Positions 11,470 to 45,015 of a stretch of DNA of 64,000 nt are shown piece by piece (the first letter of the stretch is position 1; each line of letters starts with the position of its first letter). The stretch is from the NCBI GenBank assembly GCA_019748135.1, contig JAIEPZ010000018.1, positions 12,902 to 76,901 of the forward strand, in the 5' to 3' direction. Under the pieces are notes generated by a model. That model saw only the letters and a list, made by a program, of their open reading frames with translations, had not been told where the DNA came from and searched no databases. Origin of the DNA: Hyphomicrobiales bacterium. Lineage in GTDB: Bacteria; Pseudomonadota; Alphaproteobacteria; Rhizobiales; UBA4765. Position numbers and translations under genes: made by a program.

Positions 11470-11651
11470 GGATCGCATGTTGTGGTGGCGCAGCGTCTTC
11501 CATGGCTAATATTGTATTAAAGTAATCATTAAAATTAGACATAAATAATACTAAAACAATCATAAAACATACATAAAATGCATGAATATTACTTAGCGTG
11601 ACTGAAAATATTGTGTGTCATCTTCCCAATACTAACGGGGAGAGACAGAAC

Positions 11652-30394: not shown

Positions 30395-30568
30395 GGGAGA
30401 GACTGCCAGACCCGCATCGGCACGATGCGCGCAAGTCGTGTGGACGCGATGAGAAGAAGGCGGGATAAGGCACACGCCACGAAAATCACGTTGTGATGCG
30501 CCAAAGGCAATGACACACAAACCCACATTTGTGCTATATGGTACTCCGCTATGAAGGAGCCTTATGAC

Positions 30569-30820
30569 ATGAGCCGACTGACCATCGACGTCACCGACCA
30601 GCAGCACCAAACCCTGAAAGCCCTGGCTGCACTGGAAGGCAAGACAATCAAGCAATACGCTATCGAAAAACTATTTTCGCCGCACGCGGATCAGGAACAG
30701 GCGCTTGCCGAATTAAAGGCGCTTCTGCGCCAGCGCATCGCCGAGGCCGAATTCGGCGAAGTGGACCAGCGCAGCTTCGCAGAGATTGCCGCCGCCGTTC
30801 TCGATACGCGAAAGGCATGA
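30569..30820 (+). CDS. ribbon-helix-helix antitoxin (ParD/CopG-like)
   Basis: 'MSRLTIDVTDQQHQTLKALAALEGKTIKQYAIEKL'. AAGGAG lies upstream of the ATG at 30569. The stop overlaps the toxin start (ATGA). Confidence 0.7.
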   Translation: MSRLTIDVTDQQHQTLKALAALEGKTIKQYAIEKLFSPHADQEQALAELKALLRQRIAEAEFGEVDQRSFAEIAAAVLDTRKA

Positions 30821-31128
30821 GCAAGCCTTATCTGCTGGTAAAAGGCGCTTCCGCTGATCTGGAGGACATCATCCGCTTCACCAATGAACAATGGGGCGAG
30901 GCGCAATGCCGGTCTTACATTGATCAGCTCGAAAGAGCCGCCACCGCGCTTGCAAAAGGCGAAGGGGTCTTCAAGGAGTTACCTTCCATACACCCGATGC
31001 TTCGCATGGCGAAAAGCGGGCGACATTTCATTTTCTGCTTGCCGCGTTCCGGTAGCGTCCCGCTCATCCTTGCCATCTTGCATGAGCGCATGGATATCAT
31101 GGCGCGCCTTCAGAACCGACTGGGTTAA
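30817..31128 (+). CDS. parE: ParE/RelE-family toxin
   Basis: 103 aa. 'DLEDIIRFTNEQWGEAQ...YIDQL' and C-terminal 'GRHFIFCL...ILAILHERMD'. Confidence 0.8.
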   Translation: MSKPYLLVKGASADLEDIIRFTNEQWGEAQCRSYIDQLERAATALAKGEGVFKELPSIHPMLRMAKSGRHFIFCLPRSGSVPLILAILHERMDIMARLQNRLG

Positions 31129-31334
31129 AGCCGCGTCCACCTCCGGAGCGCAACCAGCGCCCATATCGCCTCAACCACGCCGAACGGCCAGGCCCCTTGC
31201 AGGAAGCCATAGGCTGAGCCAAGCGCGCAGGCGCCTGCAAACGCCAGCACGAACCAGGGGCTGCGCGCTTCAAGCGCATAGAAGATGAGCATCAGCGAAA
31301 CGGCGACAAGGCCGAAGAGGGTGAGAGCATCCAT
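31125..31334 (-). CDS. small two-TM membrane protein (hypothetical)
   Basis: 69 aa from the ATG at 31334, with two hydrophobic helices. The 3' end overlaps parE convergently. Confidence 0.5.
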   Translation of the reverse strand: MDALTLFGLVAVSLMLIFYALEARSPWFVLAFAGACALGSAYGFLQGAWPFGVVEAIWALVALRRWTRL

Positions 31335-31433
31335 GGGATGAGGATAACATCGTCGCTGGCGATAATAGAAACCGCCTTGGCAGGCCCACACAAAGCGAAT
31401 ACCTCTTCCGCCTCTTCCCTCCCGGGGCGGATC

Positions 31434-32729
31434 ATGAAAGCCAGCGCGCCCATCATTTCCATCGGCATTGATTTTGGCACCAGCAATACGGTCGTGGCGC
31501 TGGCCTCAGGCGATGGCCATGTGGAATCGATCCGCTTCGAGCATGGCGGCAAAAGCCACAGCGTCTATGTCTCGGCCCTGTGCTTCTGGGAGGAGCAGCC
31601 GGGCAGCGGCGCGCACGCCGAAGGCGGCCCCTGGGCGATCGAGCAATTCCTCGAAGGCCACCATGCCCACCGCTTCATCCAGTCTTTCAAGAGCTTTGCG
31701 GCAAGCGCCAGTTTTGATTCAACAATCATCTTCCGCCAGCGCTACCGCTTCGAGGATTTGCTGGCAGCCTTCCTGAGAACGCTTGCCCGCCACTGCGGCA
31801 AGCGGCTCGATTTTGCAAGCCCCTCCATCATCGTTGGCAGGCCCGTGCGCTTTGCTGGCGGCAACCCGGATGAGGCGCTTGCGCTTCAGCGCTACCAGCA
31901 GGCCTTCGAGCGGATGGGTGCTGGCCATGCCCGCTATGTCTATGAGCCGGTTGGCGCTGCCTTCTCCTTTGCCCGCCACCTCACCCATGATGCGACCGTG
32001 CTGGTCGCCGATTTCGGCGGCGGCACCAGCGATTTTTCCCTCATGCGTTTCTCGCGCGCAGGTGGCGTGCAGCGCGCCGAGGCGCTTGGCCATGGCGGCA
32101 TCGGCATTGCGGGCGACACCTTCGATTTCCGCATTGTAGATCACATCATTGCGCCGCGCCTTGGCAAGGGCAGTTCCTACCGCTCCTTCGACAAGGTGCT
32201 GCCCATTCCCAACCACTACTTCGCCAATCTGGCGCGCTGGCACAATCTGGCGATGATGAAGGGCAATGGCGATCTGCGCGAAATAAAAAAGCTCGCCCAT
32301 CTGGCGCTGGAGCCGGAGCGCCTGCAGGATTTCATCACCCTCGTTGATCTTGATCTGGGCTTTCTGCTCTACCGCGCCGTGTCGGACGCCAAGATGGCGC
32401 TCTCGGCTGAGGAGGAAGTAGAGTTCCGCTTCCAGACCAGCGGCCTTGATATTGCTTCGACCCTCACGCGGCAGGACTTCGAAGAGTGGATTGCTGACGA
32501 CATCGCGCGCATTGGCGCCACCATCGACACGGTTCTGGCGGAGGCCCATGTCACGCCCGATGAGGTGGAAAAGGTCTTCCTCACCGGCGGCACCTCTTTT
32601 GTGCCGGCCGTACGTCGCCTGTTCGATGAGCGCTTCGGGCATGAGCGGCTGATTGCAGCAGACCAGTTTGAATCGATTGCGAGCGGGCTAGCGCTCATTG
32701 GCGCAAATATTAACATTGCCCCCATATAA
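31434..32729 (+). CDS. Hsp70-family ATPase (YegD-like, no substrate-binding domain)
   Basis: Actin-fold motifs 'IGIDFGTSNTVVA', 'VADFGGGTSDFSL' and 'LTGGTSFVPAV'. About 430 aa, so it lacks the DnaK C-terminal domain. Confidence 0.85.
   Translation: MKASAPIISIGIDFGTSNTVVALASGDGHVESIRFEHGGKSHSVYVSALCFWEEQPGSGAHAEGGPWAIEQFLEGHHAHRFIQSFKSFAASASFDSTIIFRQRYRFEDLLAAFLRTLARHCGKRLDFASPSIIVGRPVRFAGGNPDEALALQRYQQAFERMGAGHARYVYEPVGAAFSFARHLTHDATVLVADFGGGTSDFSLMRFSRAGGVQRAEALGHGGIGIAGDTFDFRIVDHIIAPRLGKGSSYRSFDKVLPIPNHYFANLARWHNLAMMKGNGDLREIKKLAHLALEPERLQDFITLVDLDLGFLLYRAVSDAKMALSAEEEVEFRFQTSGLDIASTLTRQDFEEWIADDIARIGATIDTVLAEAHVTPDEVEKVFLTGGTSFVPAVRRLFDERFGHERLIAADQFESIASGLALIGANINIAPI
32690..32710. repeat. 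left border motif pair of the low-GC insertion
   Basis: AGCGCTCA (32690-97), then T, then TGGCGCAAATAT (32699-710). The same two motifs recur at 33119-33138 in swapped order. Confidence 0.6.
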
Positions 32730-33054
32730 AAACAATCAATAAAAAAACAGAAAAAATCAATGAAACAAGTATAACAGTAAATTCGTTACGGGCTTTTATC
32801 ATGTTTACTATGTCGGGATCTTTTTGCTCATCAGGAGTCAATTTGAATTTAGCTCCAAATGAAATTGCTCCGGGACCTGGGCTCGGCATGCCAGACAGTA
32901 AAAAATAGTAAATGTTGAACTTTGATTGTTTCTTATTCAATTTTCTTTGCAACTTCCTTGCGGGAAAATATAGACTAATAATCGTACAAGAAATTAAATA
33001 CACATAAAATGCGATAGACGGATAATTAGCATTTAATTGGCAAAATAACTTCAT
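32710..33054 (-). CDS. two-TM small protein encoded in the low-GC block (hypothetical; candidate toxin/cargo)
   Basis: A 114-codon ORF in ~30% GC DNA, where stop codons are frequent. TM segments are 'IAFYVYLISCTIISLYF' and 'FTVILVSLIFSVFLLIVFIW', with a K-rich loop. An AGG lies ~10 nt upstream of the ATG. Confidence 0.5.
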   Translation of the reverse strand: MKLFCQLNANYPSIAFYVYLISCTIISLYFPARKLQRKLNKKQSKFNIYYFLLSGMPSPGPGAISFGAKFKLTPDEQKDPDIVNMIKARNEFTVILVSLIFSVFLLIVFIWGQC

Positions 33055-33118
33055 GTTACGATTACCTGCGTTCGCCTAATCATCCTAATAATTACTATTA
33101 TGTATTTTTAAGCTGTTA
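32711..33118. other. low-GC inserted block (~0.4 kb)
   Basis: Hand counts of two 60-nt lines give ~28% and ~35% G+C, against >60% in the flanks. The breakpoints coincide with the last codons of the Hsp70-like gene and the stop codon of the DinJ-like gene. Confidence 0.7.
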
Positions 33119-33138
33119 TGGCGCATTTATAGCGCTCA
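33119..33138. repeat. right border motif pair of the low-GC insertion
   Basis: TGGCGCATTTAT (33119-30) followed directly by AGCGCTCA (33131-38). The TCA is the DinJ stop codon on the minus strand. Confidence 0.6.
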
Positions 33139-33399
33139 ATCTCCCTCACGCAGATCATCCATCAGGGCATCGATGGTCTTGAAGCGTGGCAATTTGCCTG
33201 CCCGCGCTTCACGCATGGCGGCGATGGTCGTCTCGTTCGGCACCAGAGGCTCGAACGGCAAGGCCTTTTCAGCCGCAATACGCATCATCATCATGCGAAA
33301 GGCATCGGATGCGGTGAGACCCATCGCGTCAAGCACGGCACTTGCCTCGTCTTTAATGCGCTGATTGATCCGCGCCCGTATCACTGCATTTTCAGCCAT
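33136..33399 (-). CDS. RelB/DinJ-family antitoxin
   Basis: 'VIRARINQRIKDEASAVLDAMGLTASDAFRMMMMRIAAEKALPFEP'. GAGGTG Shine-Dalgarno sequence upstream. Confidence 0.85.
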   Translation of the reverse strand: MAENAVIRARINQRIKDEASAVLDAMGLTASDAFRMMMMRIAAEKALPFEPLVPNETTIAAMREARAGKLPRFKTIDALMDDLREGD

Positions 33400-33412
33400 G
33401 TTTCACCTCTGC

Positions 33413-33425
33413 GCTACAATGTAGC
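33413..33425. promoter_or_regulatory. 13-bp perfect palindrome upstream of the dinJ-like gene (candidate operator)
   Basis: GCTACA-A-TGTAGC lies 14-26 nt upstream of the start codon. Confidence 0.35.
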
Positions 33426-33556
33426 ACAAATGGATATGACCGCAAAAGTTTCAAACAGCGCTGCCCCAACGCCTTGACTCATCCGCATATTCGACAAGTC
33501 TGTCGGGCCTAGACATTCACGCACGAGAACACCACGCAATCCGGGAGTATCCTCAC

Positions 33557-34312
33557 ATGACCCCCCCCCAGAAAGTCGCCATCGTCACGGGTGCCGGCAG
33601 CGGCATCGGCAAGGCAGCGAGCCTTGCCTTGGCGAGAGCGGGCTTCGCGGTGGGGCTTGCGGGCAGGCGCAAGGACGCGCTGGAGGCGGTCGTCAAGGCA
33701 GCCACCAACCCCGCCCTCATGCTGGCGCACGCCACCGACGTCGCCGACCCCGGCTCGGTCAAAAGCCTGTTTGCGGCGGTAAGAGAAAAATTCGGCCGGC
33801 TTGATCTCCTGTTCAACAATGCCGGCATCGGCGCGCCCGCGATCCCGATGGAGGACCTCACCTTCGAGCAGTGGAAGGCGGTAGTCGATATCAACCTCAC
33901 GGGGTCATTCCTGTGCACGCAGGAAGCCATCCGCATCATGAAGGATCAGACGCCACGCGGCGGGCGCATCATCAATAATGGCTCGATCTCGGCGCATGCC
34001 CCGCGCCCGAACTCCGTGCCCTATACCGCCACCAAGCACGCCATCACCGGGCTCACCAAATCAACCTCGCTTGACGGGCGCAGATACGACATCGCCTGCG
34101 GCCAGATCGACATCGGCAATGCCGCGACCGACATGGCCATGCGCATGGCCTCCGGCGTGCCGCAGGCCAATGGCGAGATCGCAATCGAGCCGCTGATGGA
34201 CCCCGAGCACGTGGCTGACACCATCGTCCACATGGCCTCGCTGCCGTTAACCGCAAACGTTCAGTTCGTCACCGTCATGGCAACGAAAATGCCCTTTGTT
34301 GGCAGGGGATAA
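33557..34312 (+). CDS. SDR family oxidoreductase
   Basis: '[11 protein letters not shown]', 'NNAG' and '[11 protein letters not shown]' (YxxxK). Confidence 0.9.
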
Positions 34313-43643: not shown

Positions 43644-44893
43644 TGAAAGAAATTGTCTCATTGTCTGAAGTCGCGGCGCCTGCACGCCAATTTGCCCCGG
43701 CAAGCGCCATGGTCATTGCTCTCTCCATCGGCCAGGTGGTCTCCTGGGGCACGCTTTTCTACGCGTTCACTCTGTTTATCGTCCCCATGGAAGCCGAATT
43801 CGGCTGGAGCCGCACCGAACTCAACGGCGCCCTGTCGCTTGGCCTGTTGGCTTCCGCCGTCATGGCCCTTCCCGCCGGTACGCTGATCGACCGTTTTGGT
43901 GGACGCTGGATCATGGGCATCTGCGCTGTTTTGGGCGCGGCATGCCTGGCGCTGTGGTCGATGATCAGCGATCTCACGAGCTTTTACCTGCTGTGGATCG
44001 TCATCGGCATGCTGCATGCCGGCACATTGTACGAACCAGCCTTCGCCGTCCTGACCGCCAATGTCCGCGACTACAAGCGCGCCATCACATTCATGACCTT
44101 TTTCGGCGGCTTTGCCTCGACCGTCTTCATTCCGCTCACCCATCTTCTCATTGATCATTTCGGCTGGCGCCAGGCGCTGTTAGCGCTCGCAATCATCCAA
44201 CTCGCCATCCCCGGTATCTTCAACATCCTCATGCTGTCGGGAACACGCGGCAGCATGAGCGGCGAAACCATCACCCCGTCTGCGCCGCAGGAACGCTCAC
44301 CCTTGACCAGCGCGCTGCGCCAACCCGCCTTCTGGGGTCTGTCGCTGGCATTGACAGCCTATGCGCTCCTCTTCTCCGGGCTCACCTTTCATATGATCCC
44401 TCTGCTGAGTGAGCGCGGCGTCAGTCTTGATCAGACGGTGGCTGCGGTTGCCCTCATCGGCCCCTCGCAGGTTGGCGGGCGGCTGATCCTCTTCTTTTTC
44501 GCCACCAACGCCTCGGCGCGCGCCCTTGGCAAAGTCGTCTTCCTCATGCCGATCCTTGCCATGATCTTGCTGATCGCCGCTCCGCCTTTCGGCTTTCCGG
44601 GACTGGTCGCATTCGCCTTCGTCTACGGCCTTGGCAATGGCATGATCACCATCGTGCGCGGCGCCGGTGTCGCAGAAATCTTCGGCACGCGCGGCTATGG
44701 TGCCATTTCAGGCGCATTGACCCTGGTCACCAATCTCGCCAAGGCCATCGCCCCCCTGCTCCTCGCCTTCCTGTGGCAGATCGGCGAGAATTACCAGACG
44801 CCGCTGCATATTTTCCTGGTCATTACCTGCATCGGCGCCGCCGCCTTCTGGTTTGCGGCCATCACGGCAAAAAACATAGAAATACAAAAGTAA
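43643..44893 (+). CDS. MFS transporter
   Basis: 416 aa, ~12 TM segments, with a 'GTLIDRFGGR' loop 2-3 motif. Confidence 0.85.
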   Translation: MKEIVSLSEVAAPARQFAPASAMVIALSIGQVVSWGTLFYAFTLFIVPMEAEFGWSRTELNGALSLGLLASAVMALPAGTLIDRFGGRWIMGICAVLGAACLALWSMISDLTSFYLLWIVIGMLHAGTLYEPAFAVLTANVRDYKRAITFMTFFGGFASTVFIPLTHLLIDHFGWRQALLALAIIQLAIPGIFNILMLSGTRGSMSGETITPSAPQERSPLTSALRQPAFWGLSLALTAYALLFSGLTFHMIPLLSERGVSLDQTVAAVALIGPSQVGGRLILFFFATNASARALGKVVFLMPILAMILLIAAPPFGFPGLVAFAFVYGLGNGMITIVRGAGVAEIFGTRGYGAISGALTLVTNLAKAIAPLLLAFLWQIGENYQTPLHIFLVITCIGAAAFWFAAITAKNIEIQK

Positions 44894-45015
44894 TTAAATA
44901 TTGCATTTGATTTAAGTTTTAGTAATAACCATATATACTTATTATAATTGTTGCATTGTGTTGCAAATATTGGATTGTCCGTGCCATGTTTTATTTAAAC
45001 AACGGCGAGGACGAT

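Follow-up and report, generated by a model that had tools for sequence, protein, structure and literature searches.

An orphan RelB/DinJ antitoxin gene in what is very probably a degraded relB-yafQ locus of a Raskinella-like alphaproteobacterium

The relB(dinJ) gene described here is, with good confidence, what remains of a degraded relB(dinJ)-yafQ type II toxin-antitoxin (TA) locus in a Raskinella-like alphaproteobacterium, in which the antitoxin is an orphan and the slot of the toxin holds AT-rich filler. The host group belongs to the Hyphomicrobiales and its habitats are drinking water and freshwater. The window, by which is meant the whole 64-kb stretch of DNA analysed, has a GC content of 61%. 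Comparisons were made with the syntenic sister genome L001, Raskinella chloraquaticus UBA3134. The relB-yafQ cassette with its conserved operator is flanked by a yegD-like gene on one side and an SDR gene on the other, an order seen only in the genus Raskinella. When the relatives of yegD in Bradyrhizobium and Microvirga were searched, neither relB nor the same SDR gene was found adjoining them. No synteny was seen outside the genus that would date the original insertion of the cassette further back.

The antitoxin gene (33136-33399, minus strand) encodes 87 amino acids, and the Shine-Dalgarno sequence GAGGTG, read from the sequence at 33404-33409 on the same strand, lies 4 nt upstream of its ATG. 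An earlier note on this DNA had described both the gene and its ribosome-binding site, and both are present, the gene being intact. Membership of the RelB/DinJ family was judged by scores above the curated thresholds and by a full-length match, meaning the N-terminal ribbon-helix-helix (RHH) plus the C-terminal toxin-binding region. The protein qualified with Pfam PF04221 (6.8e-20, 71.2 bits against a cut-off of 22.4, residues 4-82) and with TIGR02384 RelB_DinJ (4e-22, 78.2 bits against a cut-off of 45.65, residues 1-83). Identity to RelB proteins from intact relB-yafQ pairs is 60-76%. Between the window and L001, both without the toxin, dN/dS of relB is 0.07 at a dS of 0.54; for comparison, the neighbouring SDR gene and usg gave 0.10 and 0.17 against the same genome. 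The gene is thus under strong purifying selection and has been maintained after the loss of its toxin, with the caveat that both losses of the toxin might be recent and have occurred independently.

The perfect 13-bp palindrome reported 14-26 nt upstream of relB was found at 33413-33425 (GCTACAATGTAGC) and includes a -10-like TACAAT. It follows the pattern GCTACA-W-TGTAGC of the RelB/YafQ family, and the L001 copy is identical to that in the window. Of 80 homologous loci, which span many phyla, 42 have the exact CTACA..TGTAG motif ahead of relB, at about -26 to -48 from its ATG, and near-matches were seen in most of the others. This recurrence (42/80 with the exact core) strongly supports the palindrome as a predicted RelB-family operator, and with it the earlier reading of an autoregulatory site. 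A family-wide operator of this form would be a convenient marker of the RelB/YafQ subfamily.

The earlier note had also remarked that no YafQ/RelE toxin gene follows relB. This is the case, and none was detectable within the 64-kb window; all that is left is a stub of six codons. In intact homologues a 93-aa YafQ (PF15738) starts 13 nt before the end of relB, with the N-terminus MR(E/R/K)IE(R/P)TGQFKRDYKRE. In the window the codons GTG AGG GAG ATT GAG CGC (MREIER; 33132-33149, minus strand) overlap the relB stop just where, and in the frame in which, a yafQ gene would start, after which the frame enters AT-rich DNA and meets a stop at 33108. The L001 stub has 14 codons, MREIERTGQFKRDY. A functional DinJ-YafQ module would have an adjacent, intact and co-transcribed PF15738 toxin, of which six codons are left here. 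What is found is the arrangement of an orphan antitoxin in a degraded TA locus, an intact antitoxin with a toxin remnant at the expected position, and the 14-codon stub of L001 shows the same. Among the 80 homologous loci, yafQ was uninterrupted in 50, truncated or interrupted in 17 and absent from 13; toxin decay with retention of the antitoxin is therefore recurrent in the RelB family.

In the BLAST comparison homology to L001 breaks at 32668 and 33132, and the exact breaks lie at 32702/32703 and 33131/33132. The intervening segment (32703-33131, 429 bp) is restricted to the lineage and occupies what used to be the toxin slot and the intergenic region. Its GC content was measured as 32% against 61% for the window, in line with the ~30% given earlier for the surroundings of the open frame discussed below. 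The convergent yegD-like gene of the Hsp70 family (31338-32729, plus strand; matches to PF00012 and NF008673), whose true start is likely at about 31434, has had its 3' tail replaced by the segment as well. The final eight codons of this gene (ANINIAPI, 32703-32726) and its stop codon come from the segment, and the protein ends ...LALIGANINIAPI whereas the L001 orthologue ends ...LALIGTSPEAEPAGTTPQG.

The segment is genuine and of foreign origin. For a 651-nt stretch over both junctions, all of the sampled words were present in 19 independent metagenome runs and 98% of them in a 20th, so that at least 20 runs from 10 studies contain the junctions. Single contigs reaching 3 kb in length carry it with even coverage, and two other assemblies contain it with its junctions at 100% identity. 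Comparison with plasmid and phage collections using the distant mode of blastn gave no match, and exact-pattern scans of genome and metagenome contigs found neither the window allele nor that of a third lineage described below. No tRNA lies near the segment, and an Rfam scan of 32300-33700 at E values up to 1 found nothing. A repeat search revealed a 9-nt direct repeat, TAGCGCTCA, with one copy at the left AT-rich edge (32689-32697, plus strand) and the other spanning the right junction and the relB stop codon (33130-33138, plus strand). It may represent microhomology at the junctions or a target-site-like duplication; its flanks are not contiguous in the L001-like state. A transposable element was considered and rejected, as the segment has neither terminal inverted repeats nor a transposase and shows only the 9-nt direct repeat.

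The first of two readings offered in the earlier note, replacement of the toxin by an insertion that leaves an orphan antitoxin, gains support from the MREIER stub and from the homology to L001 that ends at 33132 with AT-rich DNA beyond. It can be refined in one respect. Because L001 lacks the toxin without having the segment, the insertion need not be the cause of the toxin loss. The comparisons show that only the first six codons of yafQ have escaped deletion and that 429 bp of AT-rich DNA occupy the gap. In the explanation proposed here, this DNA would be filler gained by illegitimate recombination, with the 9-nt repeat at both junctions. The orphan RelB dimer would still bind its own palindromic operator via the N-terminal ribbon-helix-helix and repress its own promoter. 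The gene may have been kept in an anti-addiction or immunity role, neutralising YafQ-family toxins that arrive with mobile elements or come from paralogous loci; alternatively, it may serve as a small transcriptional regulator. The 114-codon open frame within the segment, ORF114, would be a lineage-specific accident or a very young ORF and not the partner of RelB.

ORF114 was confirmed as previously reported, at 32710-33054 on the minus strand, the same strand as relB, with an 81-nt gap between the relB stop and its start. A conserved gene it probably is not. The frame is unusual in its length, as had been claimed; of 5000 dinucleotide-shuffled versions of the segment, 15 contained an ORF of at least 114 codons (p about 0.003). 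Its GC1/GC2/GC3 values of 0.33/0.32/0.31 are flat and codon-position structure is missing. It has a weak ribosome-binding site, AGGT, placed 9 nt ahead of the ATG. Two hydrophobic stretches do exist, one around residues 13-32, which is followed by a K/R-rich stretch, and one around residues 92-112, so that the earlier description of two hydrophobic helices and a Lys-rich loop holds as far as it describes the residues. However, 11% of random frames that matched it in composition and had no stops showed two or more TM-like segments, and the 'two-TM' character is therefore no evidence of a membrane protein. A structure prediction, which had been suggested, gave two long helices and a disordered middle in an AlphaFold2 single-sequence model, at low confidence (pLDDT 63, pTM 0.39).

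Homologues of ORF114 were sought widely. A word-indexed search of 5.8 billion clustered proteins returned the query itself or nothing, an exhaustive phmmer search of 1.84 billion representatives found none, and back-translated peptides found none in JGI metagenome contigs. Family scans with Pfam, NCBIfam and PHROGs were empty. The PADLOC defence models, at E values up to 1, matched neither ORF114 nor RelB, giving no assignment to an anti-phage or abortive-infection system. The earlier note had named an ORF seen nowhere else as an observation that would tell against a partner gene, and these database searches gave just that result.

Contigs from three runs labelled RNA, the label being a guess, cover 32860-33151, and one extends from the relB 3' end across the spacer into the ORF114 start; these contigs are subject to ascertainment bias, are unstranded and are possibly derived from DNA. 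As this bridging contig exists and no intrinsic terminator was predicted between relB and ORF114, read-through transcription from one into the other is plausible. Only one promoter-like site was predicted, which is within chance expectation. RNA-labelled runs picked with a 10-kb query gave zero coverage of 32676-33343; these runs come from related strains and are uninformative for the segment.

A third lineage has the same junction and a ~82% identical copy of the AT-rich segment, in a locus that was rebuilt from difference tables. There the ORF114 frame contains three in-frame stops, each backed by contigs from two studies, and also a 1-nt deletion, seen in one run, that shifts the frame. The recovered 3' half of relB is intact. 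The earlier note had proposed looking for the same antitoxin-ORF pair in other genomes; L001 is without ORF114 and the third-lineage copy is broken. A type II TA antitoxin has a conserved partner, and a frame without homologues, absent from L001 and disrupted in the third lineage, does not provide one.

Conservation within the segment is uneven. When the window is compared with the third lineage, identity is 87-97% in a core at 32800-32905, where the net indel is +6 nt, as against 63-73% in the flanking AT-rich parts. Codons 57-85 of the ORF114 frame show 6 synonymous and 2 non-synonymous substitutions, and by frame the synonymous changes are 10/31 in frame 0 against 5/26 and 4/30 in the others. 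Judged from these substitutions, part of the segment may be coding now or may formerly have been so. The core could then be a small element with a function independent of RelB, either a short peptide that begins at M56 (MPSPGPGAISF...) and runs to about 32-59 aa, or a small RNA, with ORF114 as an accidental extension. The overlap of contigs of the RNA-labelled runs with part of the segment also speaks for it. However, the comparison involves only two sequences with very few substitutions in a region picked post hoc, M56 is not preceded by a recognisable ribosome-binding site, there is no Rfam match and no homologue that could show covariation or conservation, and the RNA-labelled contigs lie mostly at 32860-33151 and not in the core. 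An independent element in the core is unlikely.

The same observations can be arranged around relB. ORF114, or the shorter core peptide, would be a gene of very recent origin, restricted to the lineage, that arose within the foreign AT-rich DNA. Read-through from the relB promoter, under its own autoregulation, would transcribe it, and the orphan antitoxin would have been co-opted as its regulator or even its neutraliser. This is less probable still; if it were true, the locus would be a snapshot of the de novo acquisition of a TA partner in the form of a membrane peptide.

Lower again in likelihood stands the second reading of the earlier note, that RelB has been re-partnered with ORF114 to form a new TA or abortive-infection pair, in which a two-TM membrane-active toxin would be co-transcribed from the relB promoter and either neutralised directly or repressed by RelB. 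The arrangement on one strand at a distance of 81 nt with no predicted terminator between, the improbable length of the frame and the RNA-labelled contig joining the relB end to the ORF114 start all speak for such a pair, and proteic antitoxins with small transmembrane toxins exist elsewhere, for example PanA-PanT (PMC8832971). However, in the only other lineage with the segment the frame carries three stops and a frameshift beside a recovered relB 3' half that is intact, and relB is equally constrained in L001, which lacks ORF114. The databases searched held no homologue and the defence-system models no match, the codon-position composition is flat, the ribosome-binding site is weak, the 81-nt gap stands where a 13-nt overlap is typical of the family, and the hydrophobic stretches are expected from the T-rich composition. 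A new toxin class for RHH antitoxins would follow if the membrane-toxin reading were true, but the evidence is against it and the claim is unsupported. The locus is best read as an ordinary case of TA decay that has left the antitoxin without its toxin, and not as a new pair of RHH antitoxin and membrane toxin. An assembly artefact, in which the AT-rich block would be a chimeric join or a contaminant in a metagenome-assembled genome, as the abrupt fall in GC from 61% to 32% at two sharp boundaries could suggest, is refuted by the junctions in independent runs, the single contigs of even depth, the two other assemblies and the diverged copy with the same junction in the third lineage, and its probability is negligible.

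The appropriate annotation for the locus is orphan RelB/DinJ antitoxin plus yafQ remnant; the 114-aa ORF belongs among the doubtful hypothetical proteins and should not be called a toxin. Beyond correct annotation the significance of the locus is small. It does offer a clean, dated case of toxin decay and antitoxin retention under purifying selection in Raskinella, a globally distributed drinking-water genus, and it could be used for testing the anti-addiction idea of orphan antitoxins.

The likeness to PanA-PanT, in which proteic antitoxins occur with small transmembrane toxins (PMC8832971), is superficial and consists of an antitoxin-like gene followed by a small same-strand ORF with predicted TM helices. 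PanA has a different antitoxin domain, and PanA-PanT pairs are conserved across genomes and experimentally validated, whereas ORF114 is unique, poorly coding-like and disrupted in its nearest relative. With the DinJ-YafQ/RelB-YafQ type II systems (PF04221 and PF15738) the locus shares a full-length antitoxin that is 60-76% identical, the same palindromic operator upstream and a toxin start that likewise overlaps the antitoxin stop. The difference is that the toxin is reduced to six codons here, so that the locus cannot act alone as a TA module. Orphan type II antitoxins have been described as TA remnants or proposed as anti-addiction modules (PMC7354431). The locus differs from these in that its deletion scar holds a 429-bp foreign AT-rich segment with a long open frame. 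It resembles them in having an intact antitoxin under purifying selection beside toxin debris, and in belonging to a family in which about a third of the 80 sampled loci have a truncated, interrupted or missing yafQ.

The antitoxin gene relB lies at 33136-33399 on the minus strand and, when read directly from the sequence, comprises 87 codons. GAGGTG is found ahead of it at 33404-33409 on the same strand and a perfect 13-bp palindrome, GCTACA-A-TGTAGC, at 33413-33425, 14-26 nt upstream of the ATG, so the Shine-Dalgarno sequence and palindrome described in the earlier note are both in place. The product matched Pfam RelB PF04221 (6.8e-20) and TIGR02384 RelB_DinJ (4e-22), both far over the curated cut-offs, and with the defining features of the family checked and present it is a RelB/DinJ family member. 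A scan of species-representative genomes gave 80 RelB-encoding loci, 79 of them 60-79% identical to the window protein and one, L001 from a syntenic sister genome, 93% identical. The motif (G)GCTACA(A/T)TGTAGC(C/T)CA lies upstream of relB in most of these loci, between about -26 and -48 relative to the ATG; 42/80 have the exact core, with near-matches in most of the remainder. These loci come from, among other groups, Alpha-, Beta- and Gammaproteobacteria and Acidobacteriota. A -10-like TACAAT lies within the palindrome, which is identical in the window and L001. This conservation indicates that it is the conserved operator of this RelB subfamily and, therefore, that the autoregulation operator proposed earlier was correctly inferred.

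The toxin gene usual for the family, yafQ, is missing. At 50/80 loci an uninterrupted 93-aa ORF overlaps the last 13 nt of relB, with the N-terminus M-R-(E/R/K)-I-E-(R/P)-T-G-Q-F-K-R-D-Y-K-R-E, and is a YafQ toxin (PF15738, 4e-31). Such a canonical yafQ at this position in relatives had been named beforehand as speaking against ORF114, the 114-codon frame downstream of relB. The gene is truncated, frameshifted or interrupted at 17/80 loci and absent from 13/80 (three of these 13 at contig ends); toxin decay with the antitoxin kept thus appears, across the 80 loci sampled, to be common in this subfamily. In the window the codons GTG AGG GAG ATT GAG CGC (MREIER; 33149-33132, minus strand) occupy the frame and position of yafQ in intact loci, after which the sequence becomes AT-rich and a stop follows eight codons on. 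The claim that no YafQ/RelE-type toxin gene follows relB was therefore right, these codons alone being left, and no YafQ-like coding sequence was found elsewhere in the 64-kb window. The remnant indicates that yafQ was formerly present here and was removed save for six codons. The locus has no intact, conserved toxin partner, the feature that defines a TA module, and, lacking a cognate toxin, it would be unable to bring about either post-segregational killing or abortive infection.

The sister genome (Raskinella chloraquaticus UBA3134; Hyphomicrobiales, Phreatobacteraceae) aligns collinearly with the window at 79-97% nucleotide identity, and in both the genes run enolase-superfamily, yegD-like, relB, SDR, usg. 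It too is missing yafQ, keeping a 14-codon stub, MREIERTGQFKRDY, followed by unrelated sequence, with a spacer of 136 nt up to the yegD stop, and the AT-rich block is absent from it. The two sequences cease to be homologous at 33131/33132 beside relB and, towards yegD, after the Gly codon 32700-32702, where the YegD-like C-terminus reads ...LALIG-ANINIAPI in the window and ...LALIG-TSPEAEPAGTTPQG in L001. Because homology breaks at both edges, the 429-bp segment 32703-33131 must have replaced ~210 bp, made up of eight further stub codons, the spacer between the genes and the yegD 3' tail. A 9-nt direct repeat, TAGCGCTCA, at 32689-32697 and 33130-33138, one copy at each edge, suggests microhomology-mediated illegitimate recombination; neither terminal inverted repeats nor a transposase were found at the segment. 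Outside the genus (Bradyrhizobium, Microvirga) no relB was found beside yegD relatives.

As called mechanically, the yegD-like ORF starts at 31338 and has 463 aa. Its L001 orthologue, of 437 aa, together with the conserved N-terminus …SIGIDFGTSN, suggests a true start near 31434 (MKASAPII…), with which the gene would no longer overlap a convergent hydrophobic ORF of 88 aa and no family at 31125-31391. This ORF lies by a parD (30551-30820, PF09386) and parE (30817-31128, PF05016) pair. These three genes (region 30406-31391) are absent from L001, where the enolase-superfamily gene directly adjoins yegD, and form a second TA-type indel less than 3 kb from the relB locus.

The GC content of 32703-33131 is 32% against a window average of 61%, close to the ~30% first estimated. 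An assembly chimera is ruled out, as 19 metagenome runs contain 100% of the words sampled from a 651-nt stretch over both junctions and a 20th contains 98% of them (10 studies); this stretch also lies within individual contigs as long as 3 kb with even depth and is found at 100% identity in one Logan contig and one NCBI assembly contig. The samples were drinking water, freshwater, biofilter and wastewater, in line with the literature, which describes Raskinella as a drinking-water genus with a global distribution (PMC11411728; bioRxiv 10.1101/2025.11.10.687676). Two further AT-rich islets, at 11500-11600 and 44890-44960 (minimum GC ~0.32), sit in intergenic stretches that look like promoters, ahead of genes whose products have signal-peptide-like N-termini; both are far shorter than the 429-bp block, and neither is similar to it.

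ORF114 (33054-32710, minus strand) starts 81 nt downstream of relB and was claimed to be unlikely by chance. This was confirmed, as only 15/5000 dinucleotide-preserving shuffles of the segment gave an ORF of 114 or more codons, which counts in favour of a gene. The two hydrophobic helices and Lys-rich loop also claimed are present as Kyte-Doolittle stretches at residues ~13-32 and 92-112, the former followed by a K/R-rich stretch, but they are not distinctive: stop-free random frames of the same composition have at least two TM-like stretches in 11% of cases and at least one in 49%. T-rich DNA codes for F, I, L and V, and the hydrophobic stretches are expected as a chance product of composition. 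GC at codon positions 1, 2 and 3 is 0.33, 0.32 and 0.31, giving no codon-position structure, and the structure prediction asked for, a single-sequence AlphaFold2 model, was of low confidence (pLDDT 63). Neither 5.8 billion clustered proteins nor JGI metagenome contigs yielded a homologue, an exhaustive phmmer search across 1.84 billion representatives gave none either, and no family in Pfam, NCBIfam, PADLOC or PHROG matched. As to the same antitoxin-ORF pair in other genomes, L001 has no segment, and the one diverged copy is broken.

That copy belongs to a third, Raskinella-like lineage found as low-depth contigs in runs X14 and X20 from two independent studies, its sequence being rebuilt from difference tables. 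It has an L001-like relB allele, the 3' half of which (44 codons) is intact, and the same six-codon stub and junction as the window; its AT-rich copy is ~82% identical over 32681-32928. The ORF114 frame has three stop codons, at Y49, I86 and E91, each in contigs of both runs, and a 1-nt deletion in an A-run in X14 only. The breakage is the decisive evidence against gene status: the long open frame is confined to one lineage, and relB is retained in all three cases, with ORF114 open, interrupted or missing. The block is best seen as filler and ORF114 as an open frame peculiar to this lineage, either accidental or very young. Over 33132-33460 the L001-type allele (14-codon stub, no AT-rich block) shares samples with the window allele and is often deeper (52 vs 9 in X13, 57 vs 16 in X20); in X14 the L001-like relB allele joined to the block is the third lineage. 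There are therefore two or three coexisting Raskinella lineages that differ in the state of this locus.

That a young peptide gene has co-opted the relB promoter is very improbable. Between the window and the third lineage a core at ~32800-32905 is 87-97% identical and its flanks 63-73%, and codons 57-85 of the ORF114 frame carry 6 synonymous and 2 non-synonymous substitutions with local indels totalling +6 nt; as these are eight events in a region picked post hoc, they only hint that the core could be a gene for a short peptide from M56 onward, or some other element under constraint. Contigs of three runs with a guessed RNA label (unstranded, possibly DNA) cover 32860-33151, one running from the 3' end of relB across the spacer into the start of ORF114. 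Since no intrinsic terminator is predicted after relB, read-through into the segment is plausible, if unproven. Four other RNA runs, chosen by a 10-kb query and from related strains, gave no coverage of the segment. Unstranded contigs of two RNA-labelled runs cover 33340-33541 (relB 5' end, operator and relB-SDR intergenic region), which has no Rfam match, and leave the neighbouring genes uncovered.

The reading that survives is the other one offered earlier, a toxin slot filled by an insertion and an antitoxin left orphaned, given the MREIER stub and the foreign AT-rich DNA. Between the window and L001, both without toxin, relB has dS 0.54, dN 0.038 and dN/dS 0.07, against 0.10 for SDR and 0.17 for usg, and is at least equally constrained. 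This low value and the identical operator in two toxin-less genomes indicate that the orphan is under continued purifying selection and being maintained. The locus is a relB-yafQ cassette with the family-typical operator that has lost yafQ and has foreign AT-rich DNA in place of the scar. From what is known of RelB/DinJ, RelB dimers would bind the palindrome via their N-terminal ribbon-helix-helix domains and autorepress, and the retained RelB may neutralise related YafQ toxins from mobile elements or elsewhere in the genome.

A ribbon-helix-helix antitoxin paired with a membrane toxin would be a variant of a known theme, proteic antitoxins with small TM toxins being known in other families, e.g. 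PanA-PanT (PMC8832971), but the evidence here is against it, ORF114 having no homologues and being broken in the third lineage. Orphan antitoxins have been explained as leftovers of TA loci, as regulators or as anti-addiction modules (PMC7354431), and the window relB resembles them in having been kept after toxin loss. This is thus a degraded TA locus with an orphaned antitoxin, of a known kind.
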